Positions 4,266 to 55,856 of a DNA stretch of 64,000 nt are shown piece by piece. The first letter of the stretch is position 1. Each line of letters starts with the position of its first letter. Below the pieces are notes generated by a model. The model was not told the DNA's origin and searched no databases. It saw nothing but the letters and a program-made list of their open reading frames with translations. The stretch is from Alphaproteobacteria bacterium UBA3864 (GTDB taxonomy: Bacteria > Pseudomonadota > Alphaproteobacteria > CAAGCB01 > CAG-977). The translations under genes and the position numbers were made by a program. The stretch is from positions 435 through 64,434 of the forward strand of contig DGGW01000066.1 of NCBI GenBank assembly GCA_002393065.1. The letters run 5' to 3'.

Positions 4266-4568
4266 ACTTTCGTTTGTATTTGACGGGTTAATCTGCCATA
4301 CTGTTTCCGTCAGCTTTTCTGACAGGGACTTCACAATCCCTTGCACAAACCGGTGCGGTTCAGAGATTCCGCATCGTCAACAAAACAAAATCTCCCGATC
4401 CATACGACCGGGAGATGGTGTTATGTTCAAGCATTTTGCCAAAAGCATCATGCCGTGTTTGTGCGGTTTGTGAACTCCCGGTCGCCAAGGGGAAAATCCT
4501 CCGGCGGCCGATTGTTTTAAGATTAACACTGTCGGGCGTCAAAACCTGACGATTTAAGGAATGAAAAA

Positions 4569-5573
4569 ATGAAAGCGGATTTATCGAAAGCTGTTCGGAT
4601 TATTAATAATCTGGATATCGATACTGATTCTGATCTTAACATCGTTGTTCAAGTCGCCAAATCTTTTGAAAAAAAAGAAGAAGAAAACAGAACAAAGAAA
4701 AAAGAATTTCTTCAAGCGATTGATGCGATTAACGGCTTGAAAGTCGATAACTCATACAGTTTTGATAAAGAATTCCGAGAAAATCACCCGATTTTAGGAG
4801 ATCTGGAAAACAATATATTTTTTGAAAGCCCTCTTTTTGAAGCCGTGCAAGTCGGAATGAAAGAACCGCAATATACGACGGCGTTAGGGTGGTTTTTACA
4901 AGAAGATCAGCAAGCCTGCCGGTTGTTTATAGAAACGCTCGCCGAAGTAGCAAATTTTCCGGAAGAATTTAAAAAGATATTACCGACTGAACACACTCCG
5001 ATTGAAAGCATATGGGAATATTCGGGTAAAAAAAATTCACAAAATGAAGAAGACGATGAAACGGATTCTGAAGGTAAAGAAGAAAAAAAAGCCGAGGAAG
5101 CCACATCCGAAACTTCTGATATCAGTGCCGGCAATGATGTGAAAAATCGCAAGGAAATAGACAATCTTTTGATTTGGGGAAGTGACAAGAAAAAACACGG
5201 TATCGTTATTGAAATCAAATTCGGTGCAGATTTGCACAATGAACTTCCATGTTATCAGCTAACAGCTTTAAAGAAGATGGGATATAATCCCTGCCAGAAA
5301 AATGAAAAACGTTGTGTTTTCCCAACAAACAGGGATTTGAAATGTGAAGATTGTCAGAAAAACAATTCTCTGATGTGCGTTGTTTTATCAACCAATCGCA
5401 TATCGGCTCAGAAAATCGAAGAGAACGACGGATGTCGAAAAATATGGCATAGGGTTTTGTGGTGTCATTTTATGCCGAAACTCAGTAAAAAAATGACACA
5501 ACATCAAGGGAATGGGGATTACAGGAGATTCCTGTCCTCGTTATGGCGTAAAGTGTTCGAAACTGAAGGGTAA
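4569..5573 (+). CDS. Hypothetical protein encoded in a strongly AT-rich segment. It carries a putative PD-(D/E)xK nuclease motif and a C-terminal Cys cluster.
   Basis: Codon usage and GC are clearly lower than in the flanks. D...EIK motif (LLIWGSDKKKHGIVIEIKFG). CxxC-type cluster (CQKNEKRC...CEDCQ). It lies directly downstream of the WYL regulator on the same strand. Confidence 0.55.
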   Translation: MKADLSKAVRIINNLDIDTDSDLNIVVQVAKSFEKKEEENRTKKKEFLQAIDAINGLKVDNSYSFDKEFRENHPILGDLENNIFFESPLFEAVQVGMKEPQYTTALGWFLQEDQQACRLFIETLAEVANFPEEFKKILPTEHTPIESIWEYSGKKNSQNEEDDETDSEGKEEKKAEEATSETSDISAGNDVKNRKEIDNLLIWGSDKKKHGIVIEIKFGADLHNELPCYQLTALKKMGYNPCQKNEKRCVFPTNRDLKCEDCQKNNSLMCVVLSTNRISAQKIEENDGCRKIWHRVLWCHFMPKLSKKMTQHQGNGDYRRFLSSLWRKVFETEG

Positions 5574-5577
5574 GAAA

Positions 5578-6237
5578 ATGGAAAACACGAAAAATTCTGA
5601 AATTTTCTCTAATGAAGAATTAGGAAAAGCGATCGAAACATACAATCTCTATATTGCAAACAGAGAAACTTTTAAAAAAGTTTACAATGAAGATTGTGAA
5701 TATGATGAAAACAAGTCTTTTATAGAAAATGCAAAAGACGAGATTAACTGTTATACGGCAAAAGGTAAAATAGAAACAACCGTGCCGGATGCAATCATGC
5801 TGGCCGCATATGTTTTTGAAAAAGCGGTTTGTCCTGTTTTGAAAGATAGGGAAATCGAAATTTCAAAGATACATTGGATACCAACGTATGGAGAAGATCC
5901 ATTTCCAGAATTTGATATAAAAATTGAGAATGAAAATTCACAAAAGCCTGTTTTGCTTGTCTTGGATTGCGAAGCTTTTCGCATTGGAGGAGCCTTTGTT
6001 GCAAAAGAAACAAAGAATAATATAACACTTGAAAAAATTTTTAAGGGTAAAAAAGAAGAATTTATAGATAAATCTGATGAAAAGGATTTATCAGAAAATA
6101 TTGTATTTTCAAAAAATAAATTTGAGTTTTCTTCAAATACTCCGCTTTCTTTGGATTGTTTGAACGAAAAAATCATTCCTCAAATCACAAAGGATTGTAA
6201 GAATTTAATAGAGGAGGCGTTCCTTCAGAATAACTAA
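5578..6237 (+). CDS. Hypothetical protein, AT-rich, operonic with 4569-5573 (4-bp gap).
   Basis: SD GAAGGG 6 nt upstream of the ATG at 5578. The ORF-track start at 5512 lies inside the upstream gene. No recognisable domain. Confidence 0.5.
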   Translation: MENTKNSEIFSNEELGKAIETYNLYIANRETFKKVYNEDCEYDENKSFIENAKDEINCYTAKGKIETTVPDAIMLAAYVFEKAVCPVLKDREIEISKIHWIPTYGEDPFPEFDIKIENENSQKPVLLVLDCEAFRIGGAFVAKETKNNITLEKIFKGKKEEFIDKSDEKDLSENIVFSKNKFEFSSNTPLSLDCLNEKIIPQITKDCKNLIEEAFLQNN

Positions 6238-6315
6238 ATCTTTTTCCGGCGGCGGGACGGACTTGCCGCCGGAATGATTTTTACGGTGTTCGAATCAAGC
6301 GTCAGGTTTTGTCGC
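6238..6315 (+). repeat. Copy A of a 78-bp near-identical direct repeat. It contains a GC hairpin (ccggcggc-N11-gccgccgg, 6246-6272) followed by a T-rich tract, so it looks like a terminator plus a conserved downstream leader.
   Basis: About 95% identical to 6833-6910. Both copies sit immediately 3' of a stop codon and 5' of a gene with a similar RBS context (TATGAAAGG...AAATG). Confidence 0.8.
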
Positions 6316-6367
6316 AGATACATGATATAAGGAAGATATCATTCAATCATTATGAAAGGGAACCGAA

Positions 6368-6826
6368 ATGAAAAATACGTTGTTGGACATTATTCAATCT
6401 TTTGAACATCCGATGGATTTGGATGATCAGGAAGTGCGCGAAGTGTTGGATTCGATTGATGATTTAACGCATCGTCAGATAAAAAACGCCGTTGAAGCGT
6501 TGTTGGATAAATACAAAAGTATTCAAAGAGGATATGAAATCAGAGGTGGAATACTTTCCAAAAAGATTGAAAAACTTATCCAAGAACTGGGAAAGAAAGG
6601 TGAAAAACTTTCTCCCGATTCAATAGAGGCAATGAAGGAATTTTTGGAAGAAGAAGGATACGTCGTCTACAAAAACGCTTCAGCGATTGCGATTGATATG
6701 GTCGAATTGCCTCTGAAATTGAGAAATGAGTTTCAGGCGGAAAAGAATCGTATGGGAACAATAACATACGAAAAGAAAAAAGGAATGGTTCTTGATGCCT
6801 TGAAAGAGTGGGCGGGCGAAGAATAA
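6368..6826 (+). CDS. Hypothetical small acidic protein (152 aa), AT-rich, bracketed by the 78-bp repeats.
   Basis: ATG with an upstream GAAAGGGAA. Clean ORF with no recognisable domain. Low GC like the two preceding genes. Confidence 0.5.
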   Translation: MKNTLLDIIQSFEHPMDLDDQEVREVLDSIDDLTHRQIKNAVEALLDKYKSIQRGYEIRGGILSKKIEKLIQELGKKGEKLSPDSIEAMKEFLEEEGYVVYKNASAIAIDMVELPLKLRNEFQAEKNRMGTITYEKKKGMVLDALKEWAGEE

Positions 6827-6832
6827 TTCCTA

Positions 6833-6910
6833 ATCTTTTTCCGGCGGCGGGGCGGACTTGCCGCTGGAATGATTTTTACGGTGTTCGAATCAAGCGTCAG
6901 GTTTTGTCGC
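6833..6910 (+). repeat. Copy B of the 78-bp direct repeat. The hairpin is at 6841-6867 with a G-U wobble-preserving substitution.
   Basis: Same sequence as copy A with three substitutions. The c>t change keeps RNA stem pairing as G·U. Confidence 0.8.
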
Positions 6911-6963
6911 GGGCGGGTGATACAAGGGAAAATATCGTTCGACCGTTATGAAAGGAATATGAA

Positions 6964-7667
6964 ATGACCAAAAAAGCGAAAGTGAAAAACTGGAGAGAGT
7001 TTTTTGAATCCGATCCGAAGGAACTTCCGTTCGCCGACATGAACGTTCGCGACGAAATAGGGCGACGATGCTGATCGGCGCAGCCCGTTCTTCCGCCGAT
7101 GTCGTGCGGCGCATCATCGATGCCGGCGCGGACGTCAACGCGGGGGCGGAGGGCAATTCGATAACCCCGCTGATTTGCGCCGCTGTCAACAGCGCTTATC
7201 CCGCCGTGATCAAAATGTTGGTCAAAGCCGGCGCGGATATCGAGGCAAAAATCAATCCTGAAGGCGAAGACCGCGGAACGCCTTTGCAGGCGGCGTTGGA
7301 AGCGAAAAATTTCAAAATCGCGCAGGCGTTGATCAAAGCGGGCGCAAACGTCAACGCAAAAGACGGTAAAGGAAGAACTCCTTTGATGATAACCGCTTGC
7401 CACGACGGAAACTGCGACATAATAGAGGCTTTGTTAAACGCGGGAGCGAAAATCAACGAAAAAGACAATGAGGGAAGAACGGCATTGATGCGTGCGGCCA
7501 AGTGGGAGACCCCCGATATCGTCAAACTGCTTCTTAAAGCCGGTGCGAACGTCAACGCTGTCGACAAAAAAGGCAAAACGGCTTTGGATTACGCGCGGGA
7601 AAAGGGACGCGACGAAATCGTTTTGCTGTTGGAAAAAGTTGTGGCAGGCGAAACAGCGGAGGAATGA
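6964..7667 (+). pseudogene. Ankyrin-repeat protein gene interrupted by a -1 frameshift near 7060-7068 (the pieces are 6964-7074 and 7068-7667).
   Basis: The frame-1 ORF ends ...DMNVRDEIGRRC*. The frame-3 ORF continues ATMLIGAARSS... and then 6 clean ANK repeats. Joining at g7062 restores the ANK consensus DEIGATMLIGAA. The break lies in a GGG run, so a sequencing error is possible. Confidence 0.5.
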
Positions 7668-7752
7668 CAAGGACCGATGACGGATTGATCGCCGCCGGAT
7701 AGAGATTTAAAAGGGATTTGGAAATCATTGATTTGTTAATCGTCAAAACAAT

Positions 7753-7786
7753 AAAAAAGCTTTCGACCGATCGGTCAAAAGCCTTG
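7753..7786 (-). terminator. Rho-independent terminator downstream of tRNA-Gly: a palindromic stem around gaccgatcggtc followed by a U-run on the minus strand.
   Basis: Minus-strand reading: gcttttgaccgatcggtcgaaagcTTTTTT. Confidence 0.6.
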
Positions 7787-7790
7787 AAAT

Positions 7791-7865
7791 TGGAGCGGGC
7801 GATGGGAATCGAACCCACGACATCAACCTTGGCAAGGTTGCGCTCTACCCCTGAGCTACACCCGC
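7791..7865 (-). tRNA. tRNA-Gly (anticodon GCC).
   Basis: The reverse complement reads gcgggtgtagctcaggggtagagcgcaaccttGCCaaggttgatgtcgtgggttcgattcccatcgcccgctcca. It is a cloverleaf with a GTTCGATTC T-loop and ends in CCA. Confidence 0.9.
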
Positions 7866-7922
7866 ACTCCCTTTGAACAGTTGCGATTATATATAAATAA
7901 AAACGATATGCAAGAACTTTTT

Positions 7923-10900
7923 TTAAAAAATATTCGGTACCAGTTTTCGGATGACGCCGGGGGCGACGGCCGACAACGGATTGACGGATATTTCCGGCGT
8001 CGGCAGGACGCCTTCGATTTTATAAGAAACGCCGATCAGCCCGCCGCCTTTTTCGCCCGTCAGCATTTTCCCGACAAGGGGGACTTTGCCGACCAACCCG
8101 TTCACGCCGTAAAAAGGCATCATCGTTCCGGTCAGGTCCAAAAAGCTTTTTTGACCGTTATAACTTCCTTCCAGCGTGATGCCCAGCGACGACCCCGCCA
8201 CCAATCCGTCGTTTACGGTTAATATCCCGTTGTTATGGGCGAATTGCGCTTCCGCTTTTTCGAAGTGCAGTCCTTTCCCCGTCAGCGTGTCGATCAGCCC
8301 CGTGAACGACGTCAGACGCAACAGACGCGTTAAAAGCGGCTGTTCTGCCAATCTGAAATCTTCGATTTCGAGCAATCCGGAAGCGCCCTTTTCGGTGTTG
8401 TATTGCCCTTTGATTTTAATTTTTCCGCCTTTGACGGTTGACATGGATCCCAGCAGTTTCATCAGAGAACCGGCGTCGTCGGACGTGAAAGCGAAGGCGG
8501 ATTCGTTGTTTTTCGGATCGGGATAAAACTTGAAACGGAACGGCGTGCGTTTTTCGCCGATTTTTCCCGTCGCGTCGATTCGTTGCGGCGCGCCGCCCTT
8601 CAAAACGGCCGCGAAAGCATTGTCTTCGGCGGCGGAATCCGACAACCAGACTTTGTTGAAAACGGCGTTGATGACGTAAAGCGGTTCATCGGCGTTTTTA
8701 TTCGGTTCGTCCTTGTCGCTATTGATTTCTTTTCCGGTTTCGTCCCCGCTTTTTTCTTGCTTTTTTATCAGTTGCGATAGATCCAGCGACAATCCGTTTG
8801 CGTCAATCCGGTTTTTTCCTTTGACATTGAAACGGATGCGGGCTTTCAGATCGGTTTTACCGGCGACCAGAACGGGAACGTTGATGCGGGCGATATTTCC
8901 GTCGGGAGCGAAATCCATGGACGTTTTGACGATGTTTCCGGCTTTGTCCGAAACGGTAATGTCCGGTATGGCTTTAAGGGCGTTGTTTTCGAACGTCATT
9001 TTCAGGCGCGCCGTTCCGCCGGTTTCCGCTTTTTTCACCCAGTTGATCATGGGGAAATCGAGCGCGGCGGGAGTAAGATCGGCGTCGGCCGACGCTTCAC
9101 CCGTCCCGTTTCTGAACAGGCGTAAAAGAAAGCGCACCGGAACCGTTCCGACAACGTACGGCGTAGCGGCGTAATCGACGCCTATATCCTTTCGCGCGGC
9201 GTCGGTGACTTGTCCCGTTACGGCCAGATCCGTCGAAACGTCTTTCTGACCGGTGAAGTCCTGAAACAGTTCGGCGTGAACGGCGCCTTCCCGCGCCAGA
9301 GCGTCGGCCGTCAGTGTCAGTCCTTTTTCGTTGACGGAAAGATCGGCGTCGACATCCTGCAGGGCGATGAAGTCGAAAGGATAGCCTTTAAACGCGGCCT
9401 TGTCGGTTTTCGCGTCGACCGAGAACGCGACATCTTCCGGTTTTAAATCGTCTTTGAGCGGGAAGGTCAGCTTTAACAATCCCGTCGCCGGTCCGGACAG
9501 GTTTTCGGGCCCGATTTGCGTCGTTTGGCGTGTCAGACCGAGCCCCGGCGATAAAACGACGGACATCGCGTCGGACAAATCGGCGACTTCCAGCGGAACG
9601 GACAGGTCGAAATAGGGGACGGGACGATCCAGCCCCGTAAAAGCCGCCCGCGCGTGACGGGATACGAGACCGGCGGATTTCGCGGAATAAATACTGATGA
9701 CGATATCCTTTAAAGAATAGTCGATTTTACCGTCGGCGTCCGTTACGACGGGCATGCCGTCCATGTAGGTCAGGGCGACGTTCCGAAGACCGTGCGTTAT
9801 GTCAAGCTTTGTTACGCCGAACCCCGTCCCGTCGTCGCCGAACGCCATATACAGCGACGCGTTCGGAACGACGCCTTCTTTAACGTTGCCGACGACCCAG
9901 TCGTAAACGTCTGGAATACTGCTTCTCGGCCAATAATCGCGCGCCTGATCAATGGAAAAGTTTTCGGCCGTTGCCGTCAAAACGGCGTTCAGCAACGCCG
10001 GATTCTTTTTGGTCAGAGCGGCGTTGACGTTATCGACTTTGAAATTCCCGCGAAGTTTCGCGCCGCGTCTTAAATCAACGGCGATGGCGGGCAGGGAGAG
10101 CGTTTTGTCGCGTTTGTTCCATTCTCCGTCGATTTTGAAAGAGGCGACGTCATAATATCCGCCGATATCCCGCGGCAGAACGATGTCGCCTTCCGTCCCC
10201 GTCAGAGTGAAAGAGGCCTGACGGAGGATGTCGTGCCATTGAAACTTGTCCGACGGATACCGGAAGGGGCGCGTGTCGATTTGCAGGGACAGCGCCAAAG
10301 TCAGCGGGACGGACACGCCGTTCAGCAAAGGATATTTTTCCGCGCCGCGCAGCTTTTTCAAATCGACGTCGCTGATCAGCAGTTTTATCGGAACGAACGC
10401 CGTGTGAGACCGCCATCGCGCCGACAAGGCGGCATGAACGGGGCGACCGGCCGTTTCGGCGGTGAAATCGGCGGTGACTTTGTAACGTCCGAAACGGCGG
10501 ACATAGGAAATCGAAAAAGACGGGAAATTGAATTTCGAATTGTTGGCCCGATCGGTGATTCCGATGCGGGCATTCAGAATTTGAAAACGTGTCGGCTCGG
10601 TGTGGCGTCTGAAGATGTCGGCGATCGTCGGCAGCAAAGGCTCTTCTCCCGTTTCGGCGGATGTTTTTTCTTCGTCGCTTTCCTGCTCGGAACCGGCGTT
10701 TAAAACGATGTCGACCTTCGGATCGAAAACGGCCAGACGGCGCGGCGCCACTTTGCCGCGCAATAACGATAAAAGGCGGAAAACGACCGTCGCTCGCGGG
10801 ACGTCCGCCGCGAAAGCATCTTTTTTGGAAGCGTGCAGTTCGGAAATTTCGATATGGACGGGGCTGGACCATTTGTCCCAAACCAGTCGGGCGTCGCCGA

Positions 10901-46264: not shown

Positions 46265-46756
46265 TTATGCCGGTTTTATCGCTTTCCACGCTTTTATTTT
46301 GTCGGCGAAAGTCAGCCGCGCGTTCGCGGGCGACGTCGACGGCAGGGGAACAAGCGTCAGTTTTTGAACGAAAGCTTTGTTTTTAAACGCCGTCATAAAG
46401 CTTTGATACGCTTTGTTGCCGTTGAAATACAACGCCGTGATGTTCGGATGAAGTTTCAGAAAAGATTCGAAATCGTTGGCGACGGCGTTGCGGATGTCGG
46501 AATCAAGGCTGCCGTCGCGGTCGCAGGACGCGAACACGTCCCATAGACCGACGCCGTTTTTCAACAGAAGGGACAATTTTGCGTCGTAGCTTTCGAACGG
46601 GTACGTCGCCCCGAACAGTTCCGCGGCGATTTTCCAGAAAGCGTTGCGCGGATGGGCGTAATACTGGTGCGCCTTCAGCGACGCCTCCCCCGGCATCGAT
46701 CCGATGATCATTCGGGCGGTCCGTTCGTCGGCGACGGCGGGAAAACATACGGGCAT
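46265..46756 (-). CDS. DNA-deoxyinosine (hypoxanthine) glycosylase, UDG-superfamily.
   Basis: MIIGSMPGEASL...YYAHPRNAFW motifs of the TIGR04274-type family. 163 aa. Confidence 0.7.
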   Translation of the reverse strand: MPVCFPAVADERTARMIIGSMPGEASLKAHQYYAHPRNAFWKIAAELFGATYPFESYDAKLSLLLKNGVGLWDVFASCDRDGSLDSDIRNAVANDFESFLKLHPNITALYFNGNKAYQSFMTAFKNKAFVQKLTLVPLPSTSPANARLTFADKIKAWKAIKPA

Positions 46757-47095
46757 GAAAATCGCTCCTTTCGGGAAAGATTGTATCGGAACGGCCCGTT
46801 TTTTTGCAAGACGGATATTTCCTTTCTTTTTTATCGGAAGTTTGATAAACTCTTATTGTCTTCGGAAGCGAAGACAAGGGCGTCAGAAACCCTTTCAATA
46901 GTAGTCGCATGGTGTATGGCGACTCATAAATTATGCGCCGATTTCCCAACCGTAAAGGGCGGGTGTCGGCGTCTATAAGGCTATGCGCGAAAAACGCCGA
47001 GCCGTCTTTACTATTGAACGGTTTCTGAACACTCCGCCCACCTTTTTTCAAGGTGGGTTTTGTTCTGTACGAGGTTTTATAGGAGAGTTCAGAGA

Positions 47096-47383
47096 ATGAA
47101 AAAATACGTTTTAATTGCAACATTATGCGCTTTAAGCGGAGCTTGTCAGCCTGCCGCTCACTCATTGATTAAAGTTTCTTGGGAACAGGACGGATATGAT
47201 TGCCTGTATAAGGAGTCTTTCGGGGAAATCAGGAATGAATGGAATTTAGTCAAATTTGAAAATAGGGAATACGTAGGTTCTATTAAAGAAATCAAATACG
47301 GCAATACTCCCTGCTCAAAAATTATTGACGCCGAACTGAAAAACAATACGAATAAAAGTGCTATTACAAATCAATTTCATTAA
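47096..47383 (+). CDS. Small lipoprotein, hypothetical, in an AT-rich islet.
   Basis: SD AGGAGAG 8 nt upstream of the ATG at 47096. Lipobox LSGAC. Confidence 0.45.
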   Translation: MKKYVLIATLCALSGACQPAAHSLIKVSWEQDGYDCLYKESFGEIRNEWNLVKFENREYVGSIKEIKYGNTPCSKIIDAELKNNTNKSAITNQFH

Positions 47384-47400
47384 AGGATGGGAAGTATAAG

Positions 47401-50385
47401 ATGGAATGGAAGGATATTATAGGCAAAACGGTTTATCATAAAGTTTTTGGAGAAGGAAAAATAAAATCTTGTGATGGAAAACGCATAGAGGTTAGCTTTG
47501 GCGTTGGAGAAAAAAAGTTTTTTTTCCCAGAGGCTTTTAAGTATGGAGATTTATATGAACGGAAAGATCAAGAACTTCTGAAACAACAACGTCAAGAAGA
47601 GGAAAGGCTCCGTCAGGAAGAGGAGCGAAAGGCTTGGAAACATTTTGAGCAACAACGACGGGAAAAGGAAAGACGCAGTCAAGAAGCGCTGAGACGTCGG
47701 CGGGAAGAGGAGCAAAAGGCCCGGGAACTCCGTGAGCAACAATGGCGTGAAGAGGAAAGGCGTCGTCAGGAAGAACTGAGACGTCGGCAGGAAGAGGAGC
47801 GAAAGGCTCGGGAACTTCGCGAGCAACAACAATGGGAAGAAAAAAGGCGTCGGCAGGAAGAGGAAAGACATTGGCGGAAAGTAGTAGAAAAAGAGCTGAA
47901 TAGTCCTTTGACCGACGAACAATGGGCCGCGATTTACAATGATGACGACGCGTCTTTGATCGTCGCGGGGGCGGGGTGCGGCAAAACGACGACGGCTTTG
48001 GGAAAAATCGTTTATCTGGTCAGGTCCGGCAAAGCGAAACTGGAAGAAATTTTACCGATTTATTTCAATAAGAAAAACGCTGACGAAATGAACGGTAAAA
48101 TCATAGATATTTTCGGGAATACGCAAAAAATAGCTTACGACTATCACAGTGTGGGCTTGAAGTTTTTAAAAGAATCCTGCCCTGTAGAAAAAACTGAAGA
48201 TATGATACGCCGGATATTTAAAGATTTTCTCGATGATAAAAAAAGCGAAGATTTAATCTGCCGGATTTTTGATTTCATCGTGCGATATATGTATACCGAT
48301 AATGAACGCACGATGGAAATGTTTCCGAAAGGCTTTGACGATTTGTCCGTTGAAAAAAAAGTTGAAGCGTTGGAAGATGATTGCGAGACGTTAAACGGTG
48401 AACGTGTCAAAAGTCCGGCGGAGGCCGTGATCGCGAATTTCCTGTTTACGCATCACATCCCCTATGTTTACGAGAAATGGTTTAAATCTTGTTATCCTGA
48501 TGCATATCCGATGAAACCGGATTTTTATGTGCCTTTGGGGGACGGAACTGATCCGAAACACGCCGTTTGGATCGAACATTGGGGCATTGAATTCGACAGT
48601 TACGGAAATGAACGGGCCAGATGGCTGGATGAAAAGGGGGAAAGGGATTATATCGAAGACAAGAAACAGAAGCTGGCGGAATATAGAAAAAACAATGTCA
48701 AACTGATCGAGTTGTTTTTATCCGATTTTAAAGACGACACGCTGATCGATAAATTGAAAACGAAATTGGAAGAATTCGGCGTGGATACAAGCCGGGGAAT
48801 GACCCGCGATGAAAGAATAAGGTATATTAAAAAACTGATTAAAACAAAAAAATTAGAATCATTTCAAAATTTTGTTCAACGGTGTATAGAGCTTTTAAAA
48901 AGCAATAAACACACATCGCAGGATATTCCTAAAATTCATAAAAACGCTCTTCGCGATTTGGAAAAACGCGAAATGGAAAGGGTGAAAGAATTTTACAGAA
49001 TCGTCTATTGCGTTATGAAGGAATACGAAAGACGGCAAGGGGAAGAGAACGGTATTGATTTTGCGGATATGCTGATAAAAGCGCCGGCGAAAATCGCCGA
49101 CGCGGAGCTTCGGTACAAATACATCATCATTGACGAATATCAGGATATTGACGAACTTGATTATGAACTGATTTCCGCAATTCAGAAAAAAACGAACGCG
49201 AAAATCTGTTGCGTCGGCGATGATTGGCAGGCGATTTATCGTTTCAAAGGGGCAGATCTTGGTTTCTTTTCAAATTTCGGGAGGTATTTTCCGAATTTCA
49301 AAACATACCGTGTTCAGCAAACATTCCGAAACGGCGCGCCGTTGATCGATATTGCCGGAAAGTTTATTCAAAAAAACGACCGGCAGTTAAGAAAGACAAT
49401 TCGTTCCGATAAAAGTACGTTCCTGAAGGCCGTCCGCTATCATGAATTTGAAAGCCGGGGAAGAGAAAAGGACGTAGATCGATTGAACTGTCTGTTCGAT
49501 ATTTTAAACCAGCCGGACAAGGATAATTTTCTTATCATCGTCAGAAACAATAGCGATTTTAACAAATATTTTGATTGTTTGGGCGAAGACGTTTCCAGTC
49601 TTTCGGACGTTGAAAAGGCTTTGCGGCGAAAGTTTTCCAAAAATATCGAAGTTCGGACGGCACATAGGTCAAAGGGGCTGGAATACGATTATGTCGTCGT
49701 TTTCAATACAGCCTGCAGAATGACGGGTTTCCCGTCTCTGATGGATGATGATCCCGCGATTTCGTTTTTGTTGCCGGAAAAAGAGGAGTATTCTTTGGCG
49801 GAAGAACGGCGGTTGTTTTATGTCGCTCTGACGCGGGCTAAAAAAGGATGTTATCTGCTTGTTCCGAAATTTATGCCGTCGTGGTTCTTTTTTGAGATTC
49901 AAGACGCTATCGGCAAAGACAATATCTTTGATTCCGACAACGCCTTGCTGGCTACTTGCCCATGGTGCGGTAGGGAAATGGAACGCAAACAAAGAAAGGA
50001 TGAAACAAAAGCAATATTTTACAGCTGTTCATCCTATCCCGATTGCAAGTATTCTGCGCCGAAAGGCTTTATCGTTAAAAACTGCGATGATGTCGAAAAG
50101 CTGATAAAAGAAAAAGCCGAAAAACAAAACAGACCGGCATCCGTGTATGTCTATGATGAACGGAAAAAAGAGCTCGACTTCATGGATTGCACGCTTTTTG
50201 AGAATGCGAAGGATAAACGCCCCGCGGACCGAAGCGTTGATGTTTATATCGTGATCAATGATGTAAAGAATTGTTCCGAAGTTAGAAACTTTTTGATAAA
50301 ATTAAACCGCGAACCCGTTTTGTTGAATTTATCCGAAAACGATATACCGGAACAATTCATAAAAAACGTTTTCGGAACGCTGTGA
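47401..50385 (+). CDS. UvrD/PcrA-like superfamily-1 helicase (994 aa) with N-terminal charged tandem repeats, an inserted Vsr/DUF559-like PD-(D/E)xK endonuclease domain and a C-terminal topoisomerase-type C4 zinc ribbon.
   Basis: Walker A LIVAGAGCGKTTT. Motif II IIIDEYQDI. Motif III CCVGDDWQAIYRFKGAD. Motif VI YVALTRAKKGCYLL. Internal nuclease region SPAEAVIANFLFTHHIPYVYEKWF...PDFYVP...VWIEHWGIEFD...KQKLAEY...LIEL. Zinc ribbon CPWCG...YSCSSYPDCKY. Low GC. Confidence 0.8.
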   Translation: MEWKDIIGKTVYHKVFGEGKIKSCDGKRIEVSFGVGEKKFFFPEAFKYGDLYERKDQELLKQQRQEEERLRQEEERKAWKHFEQQRREKERRSQEALRRRREEEQKARELREQQWREEERRRQEELRRRQEEERKARELREQQQWEEKRRRQEEERHWRKVVEKELNSPLTDEQWAAIYNDDDASLIVAGAGCGKTTTALGKIVYLVRSGKAKLEEILPIYFNKKNADEMNGKIIDIFGNTQKIAYDYHSVGLKFLKESCPVEKTEDMIRRIFKDFLDDKKSEDLICRIFDFIVRYMYTDNERTMEMFPKGFDDLSVEKKVEALEDDCETLNGERVKSPAEAVIANFLFTHHIPYVYEKWFKSCYPDAYPMKPDFYVPLGDGTDPKHAVWIEHWGIEFDSYGNERARWLDEKGERDYIEDKKQKLAEYRKNNVKLIELFLSDFKDDTLIDKLKTKLEEFGVDTSRGMTRDERIRYIKKLIKTKKLESFQNFVQRCIELLKSNKHTSQDIPKIHKNALRDLEKREMERVKEFYRIVYCVMKEYERRQGEENGIDFADMLIKAPAKIADAELRYKYIIIDEYQDIDELDYELISAIQKKTNAKICCVGDDWQAIYRFKGADLGFFSNFGRYFPNFKTYRVQQTFRNGAPLIDIAGKFIQKNDRQLRKTIRSDKSTFLKAVRYHEFESRGREKDVDRLNCLFDILNQPDKDNFLIIVRNNSDFNKYFDCLGEDVSSLSDVEKALRRKFSKNIEVRTAHRSKGLEYDYVVVFNTACRMTGFPSLMDDDPAISFLLPEKEEYSLAEERRLFYVALTRAKKGCYLLVPKFMPSWFFFEIQDAIGKDNIFDSDNALLATCPWCGREMERKQRKDETKAIFYSCSSYPDCKYSAPKGFIVKNCDDVEKLIKEKAEKQNRPASVYVYDERKKELDFMDCTLFENAKDKRPADRSVDVYIVINDVKNCSEVRNFLIKLNREPVLLNLSENDIPEQFIKNVFGTL
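47580..47880 (+). repeat. In-frame tandem repeat with an 87-bp period (29 aa, ELRRRQEEERKARELREQQW-type), 2 clean plus about 1.5 degenerate copies, inside the helicase gene.
   Basis: 47689-47775 matches 47776-47862 at about 88% nucleotide identity. Confidence 0.7.
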
Positions 50386-50462
50386 CGGGGCGCCTTAAAA
50401 AATCTTCGGCTGAAATAAAATCACACTTCAGATTGGCCGGAGAATTGTTGGTTTGGAAAGTT

Positions 50463-52316
50463 TTATCTTCCCGATTTCGTCTTTGCCGTCAGGGCCGCGC
50501 GCGATACCGCGTTCTTTTTCGTCTTGTCCATCCCCAGCGTGTCCGTCAGGTTTTCCAACGTGTCGACGTTCTTTTTCATCAGCTTCAGCCCCTGTTTCCA
50601 AAAGTCGGGATGCGAAACGTCCAACCCGAACGGTTTTAACAGGTCGGGACAGCGTTCCGTCGATCCTTTGGACAGCATTTCCTTATATTTCTTCGGAAAG
50701 TCCTTGACGGTGCCGTCCTTGTAAACCTGATACAGCGATGTGGTCAGGCATTCGCCGAACGCGTATCCGTACACATAGAACGGCGTGCGGAGCAAATGCG
50801 GCACATCCGCCCAGGCGGAGGACGACTTTTCGTCATTGACGACGCACGGCCCCATGGAAGCGCTTTGCGCCTTTGTCCAGATCGCGCCGATGTCTTTGGC
50901 GGACAAAGCGCCTTTTTCGCGGATGCCGTTATGAACGTCTTCCTCGTAATGGTGCATGGCAACCTGACGGAAAGTGGTCAGCATCACGCGCGTCATTTTG
51001 TCGGACAGCAGGGCAAAGCGCTGTTTCGGATCCTTTTCGTTTCGCATCATCCGGTCAAAAGCCAGCATTTCACCGAAAATCGACGCCGTTTCATTCATCG
51101 TAACGCCTGTTTGCGTTCCCAACGCGCCGTTCTTTTTAGACAGTTCGTAATGAATGCCGTGTCCCAATTCGTGCGCCAGAGCCAGCACGTCGTTGGTCGA
51201 TCCGTTGAAGTTCATACTGACGAACGATTTGCCGTCGATGATCCGCATGGCGTATTCGCCGGATTGCTTGTTCGGCGCAGGGCGGGCGTCAACACGTTTT
51301 TCATCGAAGAATTTTTGCGCGATGTCGCCCATTTCCGGATCAAAGTCCCGATATGCGGACAAAACGATGTCTTTTGCTTCGTCAAAAGAGTACCGGCGCG
51401 GTTCGACGCCGCCGACGGGCGCGTTCCTGTCCCAATAATCGATTTTGTCCCGTCCCATCCATTTGGCTTTCAGCGCGTAATAGCGGTGGGCGACATCCGG
51501 AGCGGCGTTGTCAACGGCGGAAATCAGCGCGTCCGTAACGCCGTTGTCGATTTGATTGGACCGGTTGCGCGCTTCGACGGGCGTTTTGTATCCGTATTGT
51601 TCGTCTTCGTATTGTTTCGACCGGGCTACCGTATTGACGATTTTCGCGAACACGGCGCTTTGGCTTTTATAGCCGTCGTTCAAAGCGATGCCCGCCTTGA
51701 TCCGTTCATCCGCGTTTGCGGAATAAGACAGGTTGTAAAGCTTGTTGATGGAAACCTTTTCACCGTCCAACGCGAAAGGCAGGGCTTTTTTCGTCTTGTC
51801 ATACAGCCGGAGAGCTTCCGTCGTCTTTTTTGTGTTCGTTTCCAACTGTTTTTTCGTTTTTTCATCGAAATCCGGAGCTTTGTCCGACCGGAGCTTGTCG
51901 ATCCAGACGGCGTTGCGCCGCACGACGGGGTCGGTCATCAGTTCCGCGACTTTTTCATCGGAAAGGTTCGCCGTTTCCCGTTCAAAGAAATCGACTTTGT
52001 CATAAACGGCGTCGTTTTCCCGTTCCGTTTTTTCAAGAAAGGCGGTGTTCGCGTCGTTTGTTTCGTTCATATAGCGCAGTTCCGCATACGCGTTCCGCTT
52101 GTCCAGTTTCACATTCAGTTTGTCATACGCCGTCAGCATTTCGCCGTATTCCTTCGGCGGCAGGTCGGCGACCCGTCCTTCGCACAGTGAAGACAGGCGC
52201 TCCGCCTGCAACGACGCGGACGCCAGATCCTTTTTAAAGGAAGGGTCTTCGGCGGACGTGTACAGGGACGATAAATCCCATTGCGGCGGAAGGGCGGATG
52301 GTGCGGCTTTTCCCAT
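50463..52316 (-). CDS. pepF: Oligoendopeptidase F (M3B family).
   Basis: HEXXH zinc motif (LAHELGHGIH). About 617 aa from the ATG at 52316, with SD AGGA. The ORF-track extension to 52544 has no support. Confidence 0.85.
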   Translation of the reverse strand: MGKAAPSALPPQWDLSSLYTSAEDPSFKKDLASASLQAERLSSLCEGRVADLPPKEYGEMLTAYDKLNVKLDKRNAYAELRYMNETNDANTAFLEKTERENDAVYDKVDFFERETANLSDEKVAELMTDPVVRRNAVWIDKLRSDKAPDFDEKTKKQLETNTKKTTEALRLYDKTKKALPFALDGEKVSINKLYNLSYSANADERIKAGIALNDGYKSQSAVFAKIVNTVARSKQYEDEQYGYKTPVEARNRSNQIDNGVTDALISAVDNAAPDVAHRYYALKAKWMGRDKIDYWDRNAPVGGVEPRRYSFDEAKDIVLSAYRDFDPEMGDIAQKFFDEKRVDARPAPNKQSGEYAMRIIDGKSFVSMNFNGSTNDVLALAHELGHGIHYELSKKNGALGTQTGVTMNETASIFGEMLAFDRMMRNEKDPKQRFALLSDKMTRVMLTTFRQVAMHHYEEDVHNGIREKGALSAKDIGAIWTKAQSASMGPCVVNDEKSSSAWADVPHLLRTPFYVYGYAFGECLTTSLYQVYKDGTVKDFPKKYKEMLSKGSTERCPDLLKPFGLDVSHPDFWKQGLKLMKKNVDTLENLTDTLGMDKTKKNAVSRAALTAKTKSGR

Positions 52317-52450
52317 GATTTCGATCCTAAAAAATCCGATGGCGGAACTATACTGTAAAAGGCTTGTTCCGTCAATGTTTTTTGCTCGTTGACTTGAACC
52401 GAAAGGGATTTTACCATAAAGCACCTTGTCATGTGTCGGAGAACCCGGAA

Positions 52451-55400
52451 ATGGGAAAAGTCTGTTTTGCGATTTCATTGATTCTTTTAAGTTTTTCAAA
52501 CGCCGAAGCGCAAAATTTCGAAAATGTGCTCTGGAGTTCGGCAACGGTCGAAGAAGTCGATGACCTGATCAAAGCCGGCGCCGATGCGGACGCGTGGTAC
52601 ATGGTGGTGGACGAAAAAACGAACCCGTTGCTGGAAGCGGCCGAAAAAGCCAAAAAACCCGCCGTTATCGACGCTTTGATCAGGGCGGGCGCGGATACGG
52701 ACGTTCGCGATGACAAAGGGCGGACGCCGATGCTGGTGGCGGCAGAGGAAAACGAAAATCCTGCTGTCGTCATAGCTTTCGTCAAGGCGGGAATCGATCC
52801 GGACGCCCAAAGGCTGGAAGGGCGGGAAACGGCAGGATTGACGCCGCTGATGCTGGCTTTGATAAAAAATAAAAACCCCGCCGTCGCGGAAGCTCTGCTC
52901 AAAGCGGGAGCGAACGCGAACACTTCGGTGTATTATAAGAATATCGAACAAACGCCGTTGATGTGGGCCGTCGAAAACGGAAATCTTCCCGCAGCGAAAA
53001 CGCTGATCAAAGCGGGCGCCGATTTAAACGCCCGAAATGTTCAGGGATGGACGCCGCTGATGATCGCCGTGGAAAACAAAACGTCTCTCCTGCTGGACGA
53101 ACTGATTAAAGCGGGCGTAAATTCGGACGCGAAAAAGCTGGCACAGGAACGGTTGTTTTTTTCTTTGATAAATAATCGCCCTCTTGCCGGAATAGAATCA
53201 TTGATCCGGGAGGGCGCGGACGTGAACGCCCGAAACAAAAACGGTGAAACGCCGTTGATGTTCGCCGCTGAATTTCACACTGATCCCGCCGTCATTAAAA
53301 CGCTGATCAAAGTGAAAGCCGACGTGAACGCGCAGGACGGGAACGGCGAAACGCCGCTGATGAGGGCGACGGGGAACGATATTGGCGTCGTCGAAGCGCT
53401 GATCAAGGCGAAAGCCGATGTGAAAGCGCAGGATAAAAACGGTGATTCACCGCTGATGTGGGCCGCGAAATACGCCCGGACTCCCGCCGTCATCGACGCT
53501 TTGATCAGGGCGGGCGCGGGGGTGCATTCGCGCAACAGGTACGGGGAAATCCCTCTGATGCATGCGTACGGAAAAAACGCGGAGGCGTTGATCAAAGCCG
53601 GAACGGACGTGAATGTTCGGGATAACGACGGAAAAACGGCGTTGATGCGAACTCTCGACGCGGAGGAGTATTCCGCCGAACGTCTGGCCATGCTGATCAA
53701 AGCGGGTGCGGACGTGAACGCCAGAGATAAAAAGGGACAAACGCCCCTGATGTATGCGGCTAAAAACGCGGAAGACGCCGTCAACGCGTTGATCACGGCG
53801 GGCGCAAAGGTGAACGACTACGACAAAGAGGGAAACTCGCCGTTGCGTTTCGCCGTCGCGCATGACAAAAAACAGACCGTCGTCGCGTTGGTCAGAGCCG
53901 GAGCGACGGACGCGAACGTCCGCAACGCCGATAACGGAAAAACGCCGTTGATGTATGTCGCGGATGATGAAAAAAACAAAGATGTCGTCGAACTGCTGAT
54001 CAAAGCGGGCGCGAACGTGAACGCCAGGGATAAGGACGGAAAAACACCCTTGGCGTACGCGAAAGACAAGGCGATCGCCGAGATGCTGAAAAGGGCGGGG
54101 GCGAAGGAAGAAGAACTTTCGAAAAAAGAAACGCCGGAACCGGAATCGAAAAAAAATCCGGATAACGCCCGTTCCGAATTGAACCGGCGGTTGATTGCCG
54201 CAATCGTTTCCGGAAACCTTGCCGATACGGAAGATTTGATCAAAGCGGGCGCGGACGTGAACGCTCCCGCCAAAGAAGGCGTGCCGCTGATTTACGCAAT
54301 GAACGGCAGGAATCCCGTTCCCGTCGTCGAAACGTTGCTTGACGCCGGAGCGAATACGGAAACACGGGACGATAACGGACTGACGCCGCTGATGACGGCC
54401 GTTCTCGGCAACAGGCTTGACATGGTAAAAGCGCTGGTCAGGGGCGGCGCGGACGTGAACGCGCGCGTCCAAAAAGGAAAAAGGCAACATAATCCGCCGT
54501 TCCGGGAAGGGGAAACGGTGCTGATGCTGGCGTCGGGGGAAACGCCCGTTTCGTCGGCCGTCGTCGAAACGTTGATCAAAGCGGGCGCCGATATCAACGC
54601 GCAAGACGAATACGGTTATACTCCGCTGATGAAGTCTCTTGTTTTTATCAGGAAAAATCTTGCCCGAGTGATCGCTTTGCTTGACGCCGGCGCGGACGTC
54701 AACATTCGCGCAAAGGACGGAATGACGGCTTTCCGGATCGCCGATTCTTTGAAAGGAACGTCGATCTTTTGGAAACTGCGCGATTCGAAGTATTCTGCCG
54801 AAACGAAAGATGGTCGGAAAAAGGTTGCATCCGATCCGGTCAAGGCGAAAGAGAAGCCCGAAGAGAAAAAAGAGGCGCTGGTTTATGCGGCCAAAAAAAG
54901 AAACGAAGCCGTTGTCGGGGCGTTGATCAAATCAATCGCCGACAAAGCCGAAACGCCGGAGGATTTTCGTTTCAAACTGAATCAGTTGCTGACGAACGCG
55001 ATCGTCAACGGCGATCTTGACGACATCGGGGCGCTGATCAAAGCCGGAGCGGACGTGAATTTCCGAAGCAAGCGCGACGGACTGACGCCGTTGATGACGG
55101 CGGCGAAGGCGGATGTGTATCCGACGGTCATCGAAGCCCTGATCAAAGCGGGGGCGAAGGTAAACGTGTCCGCCAAAGACGGCCGGACCGCGCTGATGTA
55201 CGCGGTGGAAAGCGAAAGTCTGACCAATATGGAAACCCTTATCAAAGCGGGCGCGGACGTGAACGCTCCGTCCCGAACGGGATGGACCGCGCTGATGTAC
55301 GCGGCGAAGGACCACGAGGATCCTTACATCATCGAAACGCTGGTCATAGCCGGCGCCTTCGTCAATGTCCGCGTTAAGGACAAGACGCCGCTGGTTTGCG

Positions 55401-55855
55401 CTTTGGGACGCGGAAATCCTCTTGTGATCGACGCTTTGATTCGTGCGGGTGCGGACGTCAATGTCCGAAGCAACGACGGACGAACGCCGTTGATGGAAGT
55501 GTTGGAAAAAAACGGGAAGACGGACGTAATAGACCTGTTGATCAAAGCGGGCGCGAACGTGAACGCCAGGGACGACGAAAGAAAGTCGCCGCTGATGAAA
55601 GCCGTGGAAGCCGAAAGGGATTCGACCGTGATCGGCATGCTGATCGAAACGGGTGCGGAAGTGAACGCTCGTGATAAAAACGGAATGACGCCGCTGATGA
55701 TTGCGGTCCGGAAAGGTAAAAACCTTTCGGTGATAAAAGCGTTGATCAAGGCGGGAAGCAACGTGAACGCCAAAAACAACGACGGGGAAACGCCGTTGAT
55801 GATGGCAAAAACTCCCGAAGTTTCGGCTGTTCTGATCAGAGAGGGGGCGCGGTGA
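52451..55855 (+). CDS. Giant secreted ankyrin-repeat protein (about 1134 aa, about 30 ANK repeats).
   Basis: Signal peptide MGKVCFAISLILLSFSNAEA. Continuous LIKAGADVNA[RK]D.[ND]G.TPLM modules. A short Lys/Glu-rich linker in the middle. Confidence 0.8.
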   Translation: MGKVCFAISLILLSFSNAEAQNFENVLWSSATVEEVDDLIKAGADADAWYMVVDEKTNPLLEAAEKAKKPAVIDALIRAGADTDVRDDKGRTPMLVAAEENENPAVVIAFVKAGIDPDAQRLEGRETAGLTPLMLALIKNKNPAVAEALLKAGANANTSVYYKNIEQTPLMWAVENGNLPAAKTLIKAGADLNARNVQGWTPLMIAVENKTSLLLDELIKAGVNSDAKKLAQERLFFSLINNRPLAGIESLIREGADVNARNKNGETPLMFAAEFHTDPAVIKTLIKVKADVNAQDGNGETPLMRATGNDIGVVEALIKAKADVKAQDKNGDSPLMWAAKYARTPAVIDALIRAGAGVHSRNRYGEIPLMHAYGKNAEALIKAGTDVNVRDNDGKTALMRTLDAEEYSAERLAMLIKAGADVNARDKKGQTPLMYAAKNAEDAVNALITAGAKVNDYDKEGNSPLRFAVAHDKKQTVVALVRAGATDANVRNADNGKTPLMYVADDEKNKDVVELLIKAGANVNARDKDGKTPLAYAKDKAIAEMLKRAGAKEEELSKKETPEPESKKNPDNARSELNRRLIAAIVSGNLADTEDLIKAGADVNAPAKEGVPLIYAMNGRNPVPVVETLLDAGANTETRDDNGLTPLMTAVLGNRLDMVKALVRGGADVNARVQKGKRQHNPPFREGETVLMLASGETPVSSAVVETLIKAGADINAQDEYGYTPLMKSLVFIRKNLARVIALLDAGADVNIRAKDGMTAFRIADSLKGTSIFWKLRDSKYSAETKDGRKKVASDPVKAKEKPEEKKEALVYAAKKRNEAVVGALIKSIADKAETPEDFRFKLNQLLTNAIVNGDLDDIGALIKAGADVNFRSKRDGLTPLMTAAKADVYPTVIEALIKAGAKVNVSAKDGRTALMYAVESESLTNMETLIKAGADVNAPSRTGWTALMYAAKDHEDPYIIETLVIAGAFVNVRVKDKTPLVCALGRGNPLVIDALIRAGADVNVRSNDGRTPLMEVLEKNGKTDVIDLLIKAGANVNARDDERKSPLMKAVEAERDSTVIGMLIETGAEVNARDKNGMTPLMIAVRKGKNLSVIKALIKAGSNVNAKNNDGETPLMMAKTPEVSAVLIREGAR

Positions 55856-55856
55856 A

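Follow-up and report, generated by a model that had tools for sequence, protein, structure and literature searches.

A UvrD-like helicase with a Vsr-like nuclease fold in domain 1B, encoded in a variable slot between rpsA and cmk: a candidate single-protein immunity enzyme

In the 64,000-nt stretch of DNA analysed here (the window), taken from contig DGGW01000066.1 of Alphaproteobacteria bacterium UBA3864, the gene at 47401..50385 (+) is listed as one open reading frame (ORF) and encodes a 994-aa protein in which a UvrD-like helicase of superfamily 1 (SF1) carries a Vsr-like nuclease fold inside its domain 1B. The gene, characterised by Pfam, NCBIfam and Protein Data Bank (PDB) alignments and by an AlphaFold2 (AF2) model, is accessory and horizontally exchanged, and occupies a variable, lineage-specific slot that lies between rpsA and cmk. 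In sister genomes the same slot holds a DarT1-type toxin that has its N-terminal module in common with the helicase-nuclease. Judged from its genomic context the gene probably encodes a single-protein anti-phage or anti-plasmid immunity enzyme, a reading that we hold with moderate confidence.

The original prediction, made from the sequence alone, had described a single large SF1 helicase with all UvrD motifs, and this description is confirmed. Walker A, DExQ/D and motifs III-VI, together with Pfam matches to UvrD-helicase (PF00580, E 1.8e-38, 133 bits against a cut-off of 23), UvrD_C (PF13361, 63 bits against a cut-off of 25.6) and AAA_19, place the protein in the SF1A group of UvrD, Rep and PcrA. 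The SF1 motifs are all invariant across 80 diverse homologues, including residues A191, G192, G194 and K195 of Walker A (GAGCGKTT, aa 190-197, 47968-47991 (+)), which are unchanged in 80/80 sequences. A Foldseek search of the PDB with the AF2 model of the 994-aa protein (mean pLDDT 84.7, pTM 0.74) gives UvrD, PcrA and Rep as the best matches (E 1e-20, to D. radiodurans UvrD) and also returns AddA, RecB and HelD, but no structure with the whole architecture. In the alignments to PcrA and UvrD, residues 182-258 of the query correspond to UvrD 25-102, and residues 539-683 to UvrD 181-330. The first part of the core (47908..48378 (+)), which aligns to UvrD 25-102, comprises the N-terminal part of 1A, the first 1B helices and a linker; the rest (48805..49905 (+)) comprises the long 1B helices, the second half of 1A with motif II (DEYQD, aa 578-582, 49132-49146 (+)), and 2A with VALTRAK, motif III being GDDWQAIYRF. 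The protein departs from the four-subdomain 1A/1B/2A/2B layout. In the AF2 model aa 170-835 form 1A, 1B and 2A, about 60 residues replace domain 2B (UvrD ~378-550), and a large insert is present in 1B. The distance from K195 in Walker A to D578 in motif II is 383 aa, in good agreement with the predicted spacing of about 385 aa.

The insert at aa 327-460 (48379..48780 (+)) is a Vsr-like PD-(D/E)xK nuclease-fold domain. It maps between UvrD residues ~102 and ~181, which is domain 1B. The predicted Vsr/DUF559-like endonuclease domain within the helicase core is therefore right at the level of the fold; of the two insertion sites that had been considered, 1B and 2B, the former is occupied, and domain 2B is missing. 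The domain has the restriction-endonuclease-like alpha-beta-beta-beta-alpha-beta fold and is closest to Vsr-type structures, with the catalytic domain of the homing endonuclease I-Bth0305I as its closest match and RAP/FASTK domains and Bax1 among the other top matches. At the sequence level the Vsr and DUF559 models do not recognise it, and no Pfam family besides the UvrD core is matched at E up to 10. A profile built from 42 diverse copies of the insert and compared with the PDB matches phage T7 endonuclease I alone (E 0.002-0.009); in this alignment E20, D55 and E65 of the phage enzyme stand opposite E341, D374 and E392, and its catalytic K67 stands opposite W394. From the 'EDxHD' branch formed by Vsr, DUF559 and I-Bth0305I the domain differs in its third motif, E-H-(W/F)-G, and in being inserted in a helicase instead of free-standing or terminal. 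In addition, the insert matches PADLOC candidate-defence models, i.e. PDC-S69 (3.3e-12), HEAT_CxxC_PD-DEXK (1e-7) and PDC-S68.

Eight positions of the domain are near-invariant among 265 carriers, which are only ~25-35% identical overall: S338 is found in 264 sequences, E341, E358 and D374 in 263 each, E392 in 265, H393 in 258, Y417 in 264 and K424 in 260. Position 394, where the canonical lysine would be expected, is always aromatic (W in 136 and F in 124). Vsr-like nucleases normally have no classical lysine and use histidine instead. The 97-100% conservation of E341, D374, E392 and H393 at such low overall identity argues for a working, histidine-using and lysine-less active site of Vsr type. 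The insert might instead be catalytically inactive and act as a DNA-binding or structure-sensing gate for the helicase, which could be combined with any biological role. This alternative, which we regard as unlikely but deserving of some weight, would account for the W/F at the lysine position in all members, for the absence of a Pfam nuclease match, and for the presence among the top fold matches of RAP/FASTK domains, which include non-catalytic RNA binders; it is at odds with the retention of four acidic positions along with His, Lys, Tyr and Ser in 97-100% of the 265 sequences, a typical active-site pattern, and with the histidine-based chemistry of Vsr-like nucleases.

The position of the nuclease inside the helicase core and the long motif I-II spacing had been thought unusual, but they are the defining architecture of thousands of clusters. 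The insert profile finds at least 3,117 clusters at 50% identity (E <= 1e-3), and 815 at E <= 1e-10, nearly all of them proteins of 800-1,100 aa with the domain in the middle. Walker A lies upstream and DExQD downstream of the insert in 237/265 proteins, with a median spacing of 388 aa. The search for homologues of the protein was run without the R/E repeat, as the repeat-containing query was swamped (29 matches), and gave more than 2,000 proteins at E <= 1e-10. The top listed homologues are typically ~890-1,000 aa long and 31-35% identical over 86-87% of the query, and nearly all contain Zn_ribbon_Top1; they come from Peribacillus, Sutcliffiella, Paenibacillus, Fictibacillus, Flavobacterium, Paludibacter, Chlorobaculum, Elusimicrobiota and Thermosipho. 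In the databases the homologues are named only 'UvrD-helicase domain-containing protein' or, in those from JGI, 'DNA helicase IV', and the literature searched yielded no description of the architecture or the family. Members occur in Bacillota, Bacteroidota, Chlorobiota, Pseudomonadota, Elusimicrobiota and Thermotogota, and also on plasmids (81 records, 46 of which are mobilizable or conjugative), and are hardly found in phage genomes (5 small unannotated contigs among 50,697 records). In its core the window protein is an ordinary member of this family. It belongs to a close clade with 12 metagenomic relatives (55-94% identity), which is special only in its N-terminal Tudor-like/helix module, its single zinc ribbon and its extra C-terminal domain. 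Among the GTDB species representatives scanned no close relative was found, the best match being 30% identical and most being Saccharibacteria helicases that share one motif.

The family-wide alignment shows that many distant members have an N-terminal hydrophobic, transmembrane-like helix and two C-terminal zinc ribbons. Some, such as P0065 and P0134, carry extra C-terminal 3'-5' exonuclease (RNase_T/DnaQ-like) domains; the family accepts additional nuclease modules, and in P0031 ankyrin repeats are fused at the N-terminus.

The predicted topoisomerase-type C4 zinc ribbon of the window protein is located at aa 852-886 (49954..50058 (+)), where Zn_ribbon_Top1 (PF01396) matches with 36-38.5 bits against a cut-off of 32 and the cysteines form the pattern CPWC...CSSYPDC; AF2 places the ribbon at aa 852-893. 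The protein does not end there, as had been supposed, but continues into a clade-specific alpha/beta domain (aa 898-994, 50092..50382 (+), AF2 pLDDT ~90) that is conserved in relatives P0001-P0010. No Pfam match was found for this C-terminal domain and PADLOC gave just a weak match to RT_UG34 (E 0.002); more generally, Pfam, NCBIfam and single-sequence PDB searches with the insert and with the two terminal domains returned nothing specific.

At the N-terminus, a small beta-domain followed by 29-aa R/E/Q-rich tandem repeats had been predicted, and both features are recovered. The beta domain (aa 1-42, 47401..47526 (+)) is a five-strand domain, putatively similar to the Tudor domain of PcrA/UvrD, with AF2 strands at residues 10-13, 17-24, 28-33 and 36-41 and a G-x-x-V-x-H-K-x-F-G-x-G pattern. 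It has no direct Pfam or PDB sequence match; a profile-profile comparison (hhalign) with the C-termini of four PF21196 (PcrA_UvrD_tudor) helicases gives a probability of 93.9% (E 1.6e-7). The R/E/Q-rich region is modelled as a single, uninterrupted long helix (aa 57-166, 47569..47898 (+)), the first half of which has a pLDDT of 40-50 and the second half of 81-84. Part of it is encoded by a tandem repeat at 47614-47861 with a period of 87 nt and 2.9 copies (Tandem Repeats Finder). A profile search with the N-terminal module retrieved three short fragments only.

The gene lies in a compositionally distinct islet, as had been predicted. The GC content falls to 0.37-0.44 across 47000-50400 from 0.52-0.60 in the flanks, and the helicase gene itself has 42.2% GC compared with 53.9% for the remaining window, so that the gene is foreign by composition. 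The GC content of the host likewise exceeds that of the gene in five loci, i.e. the window, L001, L003, L004 and L007. The glycosylase and pepF genes that had been named as neighbours are indeed found on either side, as a UDG-family gene (46265-46756 (-)) on the left and a Peptidase_M3/pepF-like gene (50463-52319 (-)) on the right. Neither direct repeats nor att-like sites were found in the flanks of the islet, and counts of promoters and terminators are at chance level except for the terminator of a non-coding RNA (ncRNA) upstream of the gene.

The clearest view of the slot comes from related loci. Locus L001 is syntenic with the window, and its helicase copy is 89-94% identical, depending on the span compared. 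The helicase diverges faster than its flanks, with 88.8% identity to the L001 copy versus 94-99.5% for UDG, rpsA, pepF, cmk and aroA; for the more distant genes rsmE and dsbA the identity between the window and L001 is 83-89%. In L003 and L067 the module sits between rpsA and UDG instead. When metagenome contigs were scanned for the core of the upstream ncRNA, 11 further related loci (L072-L082) were recovered, and rpsA is ~90% identical in the nine recovered loci having a full or near-full rpsA on the contig. Among close relatives the helicase gene is complete in L003 and L078, cut short at one and the same point in L067 (P0011) and L068 (P0012), and reduced to a 53-aa remnant in L081. It is absent from L074 and L082, where the slot has a different lipoprotein only, and from L072 and L080, where a small gene stands alone and cmk follows directly; elsewhere the slot after the ncRNA holds other cargo. 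The truncated genes (L067 8001-10070 and L068 8001-10034) both end in ...KFSKKNRN and are followed by a short ORF, and the truncation could reflect a shared frameshift in an A-rich stretch, either in a pseudogene or at a slippage-prone site.

In L073, L077 and L081 the slot contains a Gly-rich protein, followed by a fusion of a Tudor-like/coiled-coil module to DarT and then by a NADAR antitoxin. The DarT1-type fusion genes (L073 5783-6778, L077 6921-8006, L081 11053-12033) encode proteins of 326-361 aa with the module at the N-terminus; the two proteins scanned match PF14487 with E-values of 1.8e-18 (L081) and 1.7e-24 (L077), and the NADAR-DarT1 antitoxin that follows matches PF22397 with 8e-88. 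The DarT protein of L081 matches the window helicase over aa 1-53 with 77% identity, and that of L077 has the segment 'DFPDYFSSDSV' in common with P0001. As the helicase and DarT1 have their N-terminal module in common and occupy one slot, the effector has been swapped between them. This exchange between a helicase-nuclease and DarT1 is a new finding, and a DarT with such an N-terminal extension may itself be undescribed. The two effectors are otherwise unrelated: DarT1 is a single-stranded DNA (ssDNA) ADP-ribosyltransferase with a dedicated antitoxin, whereas the window protein is a helicase-nuclease with no recognisable antitoxin. One module carried by two unrelated DNA-acting effectors at one hot spot is the pattern of conflict systems, and it forms the strongest local argument for placing the window gene among them.

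The neighbourhoods of more distant homologues point in the same direction. In a survey of about ten contexts, each independent neighbourhood examined holds mobile-element or defence genes, and this recurrent location, together with the variable presence among relatives, corresponds to the operational description of a defence-island gene. In L069 the member stands directly after a double Type I restriction-modification system with an integrase nearby, in L070 between AbiEi/AbiEii and a HATPase/SduA_C (Shedu-like) gene, and in L071 directly downstream of a GajA/GajB-like pair, which is a separate unit. A Vibrio plasmid has a member with a UvrD+AAA ATPase pair and DUF262 genes, and on another plasmid the member precedes DUF6088-AbiEii, with toprim/DUF3991 genes near. 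Islands with the order integrase, helicase and Fic adjoin gatCAB; one member lies beside NERD-HRDC, GIY-YIG and a transposase, and one sits where a prophage tail module ends, together with Dam. Homologues that are ubiquitous, vertically inherited repair helicases in a conserved context, unconnected with defence islands, had been named as the finding that would speak against a defence element. The homologues are indeed very widespread, but they lack a conserved chromosomal context and are found in defence islands and on mobile elements, so that the defence reading withstands this comparison.

The same surroundings could be expected if the protein served the mobile elements themselves, in replication, recombination, DNA processing, competitor exclusion or as a homing-type selfish nuclease, and not host defence. 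We consider this distinctly unlikely, since no relaxase, replication initiator, integrase or other constant partner accompanies the gene, which in the window, L001 and L003 is found on its own amid core genes and which is so rarely found in phage genomes; nevertheless, the plasmid records (46 of 81 mobilizable or conjugative), the adjoining integrases, the prophage-end location, the plasmid toprim/DUF3991 genes, the fold likeness to I-Bth0305I and a match of the insert to phrog_559 'HNH endonuclease' (7.7e-6) are all in keeping with it. The cargo of mobile elements very often consists of defence genes, so that context does not separate these two readings.

The single-polypeptide helicase-nuclease format, which had been compared with that of Nhi and Gabija-like components, is real, but the protein is a member of neither. 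Nhi combines an N-terminal HsdR-like nuclease with a DUF2075 SF1 helicase, in Hna, HmaA and DdmD the helicase is of SF2 and the nuclease C-terminal, and Hhe is a DUF4011 protein (PMC11232893). All of these resemble the window protein in having a helicase and a nuclease in one polypeptide and in being located in defence islands or mobile elements (PMC11232893), but none, by the descriptions given, has a UvrD-type core with a nuclease inside 1B. Membership of Nhi or Hhe was rejected, as Pfam shows no such domains in the protein and the nuclease is internal, not terminal; models of Nhi, Hna, HmaA, DdmD and Hhe are not among the best 25 of 43 PADLOC matches. In that same set the matches of the full protein are confined to generic GajB and DRT-helicase cores. 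GajB of Gabija has a UvrD-type core, as reflected in PADLOC GajB matches of 1e-32 and matches to PDB GajB chains of 6e-7, but is ~500 aa long and has neither a nuclease insert nor a zinc ribbon. Gabija was rejected because the GajB matches are confined to the core and the neighbours in the window are a small lipoprotein gene, UDG and pepF, with no GajA (OLD/TOPRIM ATPase).

With the helicases UvrD, PcrA and Rep the window protein shares motifs I-VI and the 1A/1B/2A fold, and its Tudor-like domain may resemble the C-terminal one of PcrA/UvrD. Unlike them, it has no 2B, contains a 135-aa nuclease fold in 1B, a zinc ribbon and an extra C-terminal domain, carries its Tudor-like domain at the N-terminus on a long charged helix, and is encoded by an accessory, not a core, gene. 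The best NCBIfam match is DNA helicase IV (HelD, NF008276, 5.6e-71), which has a common core and a reduced 2B; it was rejected as an equivalog since the 239.9 bits obtained fall short of the cut-off of 543 and just profile positions 353-675 align well. About 60 profile positions stand opposite the ~230-aa insert region of the window protein (aa 260-489), so that helicase IV, judged from these match coordinates, appears to lack the insert, and the model has no zinc ribbon. The resemblance to helicase IV, the JGI names, the Vsr fold shared with a mismatch-repair nuclease, the Tudor-like domain and the adjoining UDG-family glycosylase could together suggest an accessory repair or transcription helicase of helicase IV/HelD/PcrA type, in which the Vsr-like domain would detect or nick DNA lesions or mismatches and the Tudor domain would hold the protein on RNA polymerase to deal with R-loops or conflicts between transcription and replication, but this is improbable given the core-only alignment, the foreign composition, the presence, absence, decay and replacement of the gene in close relatives, the fusion of the same module to DarT, neighbourhoods of defence and mobile-element genes instead of repair operons, and a UDG adjacency that is not conserved (on the other side in L003, absent from L072 and L080).

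As an immunity enzyme, the protein would act as a stand-alone, ATP-driven SF1A DNA translocase or helicase with a metal-dependent Vsr-like nuclease in 1B. The domain architecture and fold, the conserved residues, the accessory nature of the gene, its neighbourhoods and the exchange with DarT1 are observed; nuclease activity, polarity, target and defence phenotype are features that we infer as follows. The zinc ribbon and the helicase core would load on single-stranded or forked foreign DNA, e.g. replication or recombination intermediates, and the motor would move in the 3'->5' direction, as SF1A enzymes do. The nuclease, which would be located beside the path of the translocated strand, may then nick or degrade the DNA. 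The N-terminal Tudor-like domain of the clade, on its helix of ~110 residues, could serve as a targeting, sensing or regulating module, possibly by docking on RNA polymerase by analogy with the Tudor domain of PcrA/UvrD. 

Several points weigh against the immunity reading. The literature searched contains no experiment on any member of the family, and PADLOC has no dedicated system model that matches the full-length protein. In the window and L001 the gene is located among housekeeping genes, with no adjoining integrase or defence gene, and the contexts surveyed elsewhere were hand-chosen, so that the survey is qualitative and not a statistical enrichment. Catalysis is not assured because the canonical PD-(D/E)xK lysine, K67 in T7 endonuclease I, is W/F in the family. 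The evidence for the Tudor assignment is a small profile-profile comparison with the four helicases, and the proposed link to RNA polymerase is an analogy with the Tudor domain of PcrA/UvrD, which binds the polymerase.

If the family does consist of immunity enzymes, it would add a very abundant single-gene system to those described. The nuclease in 1B, which would lie beside the translocated strand, is a structural solution unlike that of RecB/AddA, Nhi, Hna or DdmD, and would offer a compact model of how unwinding and cutting are coupled. Abundance and the effector swap make the family noteworthy, and its parts and their order are unlike those of Nhi, Hna, HmaA, DdmD and Hhe. The swap is a concrete case of effector exchange on a common N-terminal module, and it provides a handle on how enzymes of this kind are targeted. 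More speculatively, and in our estimate with little probability, the Tudor-like domain and the ER/K-type helix may form an exchangeable delivery or sensor module, possibly docking on RNA polymerase, that has been fused at one hot spot to either a helicase-nuclease or DarT1. Such a module would imply polymerase-tethered immune effectors acting on ssDNA exposed in phage transcription or replication, and would make the thousands of 'UvrD' proteins with a nuclease in 1B a major single-gene immunity family.

The left edge of the slot is marked by a conserved structured ncRNA of ~230 nt (46835..47064 (+)) with an intrinsic terminator (47036-47058) and a T run at its end. Copies are present in L001 (9441-9680), L003 (9070-9305), L067 (6642-6878) and L072-L082, and are ~90% identical across loci whose neighbour proteins are 52-65% identical. 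RNAalifold folds 15 ncRNA sequences with -80.8 kcal/mol and 63 pairs, 12 of them with compensatory changes; in Rfam only a sub-threshold match to sRNA-Xcc1 was found (31.3 bits, gathering score 53). In the covariance model GGGCGGGUG (46957-46965) is paired with the CCGCCC assigned to the terminator by RNAalifold, and this alternative pairing makes attenuation of the downstream genes possible. The ncRNA lies in the rpsA region in 14/15 loci, with UDG intervening in the window, L001 and L002 and the others directly beside rpsA; the exception is L079, a 1.2-kb contig without an rpsA match. As it keeps this place whatever the cargo, the ncRNA is an element of the host lineage, and it was rejected as part of a mobile cassette on account of its fixed position in the rpsA region of related loci.

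Between the ncRNA and the helicase lies a small putative lipoprotein gene of 95 aa (47096..47383 (+)). The gene had been predicted, and it is present, but its ORF, listed from TTG 47060, most likely starts at ATG 47096 (MKKYVLIATLCALSGAC...). The N-terminus of the protein is signal-peptide-like and ends in Cys. Homologues stand at the same position in L001 (66% identity), L003 (52%) and L072-L081, and no family match was found in Pfam, NCBIfam or PADLOC. A role as dedicated or obligate partner of the helicase was rejected, since the gene is present in relatives without the helicase. In two loci where the helicase is absent, a putative lipoprotein of 191-195 aa is encoded (L074 7164-7739, L082 3466-4053). 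Its signal peptide (MKKKYIALMALPLLCGC) equals that of the small lipoprotein in other relatives and its mature part differs, so that the lipoprotein gene is itself variable.

The Gly-rich protein, of 243-248 aa and with a central hydrophobic Gly/Ala-rich stretch, is encoded between the small lipoprotein gene and the cargo in L067 (7257-7988), L078 (4443-5180), L073 (5049-5786), L077 (6165-6908) and L081 (10326-11072), and is absent from the window. The copy scanned, that of L081, matches PADLOC PDC-M09A (2e-19) and LeoBC.

Farther to the right, between pepF and cmk, the window contains two large ankyrin-repeat genes (52364-57503 (+), encoding 1,163 and 548 aa). They are absent from the otherwise syntenic L001 and hence mark a second variable insertion point in the rpsA-cmk region. 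At the other end of the window, a second stretch of low GC content (41-44%, 4000-8000) adjoins tRNA-Gly(GCC) (7791-7865 (-)). It contains three ORFs without a Pfam match (4569-5573, 5512-6237 and 6368-6826) and an ankyrin-repeat ORF of 199 aa (7068-7667), and may represent a further islet acquired next to a tRNA gene.

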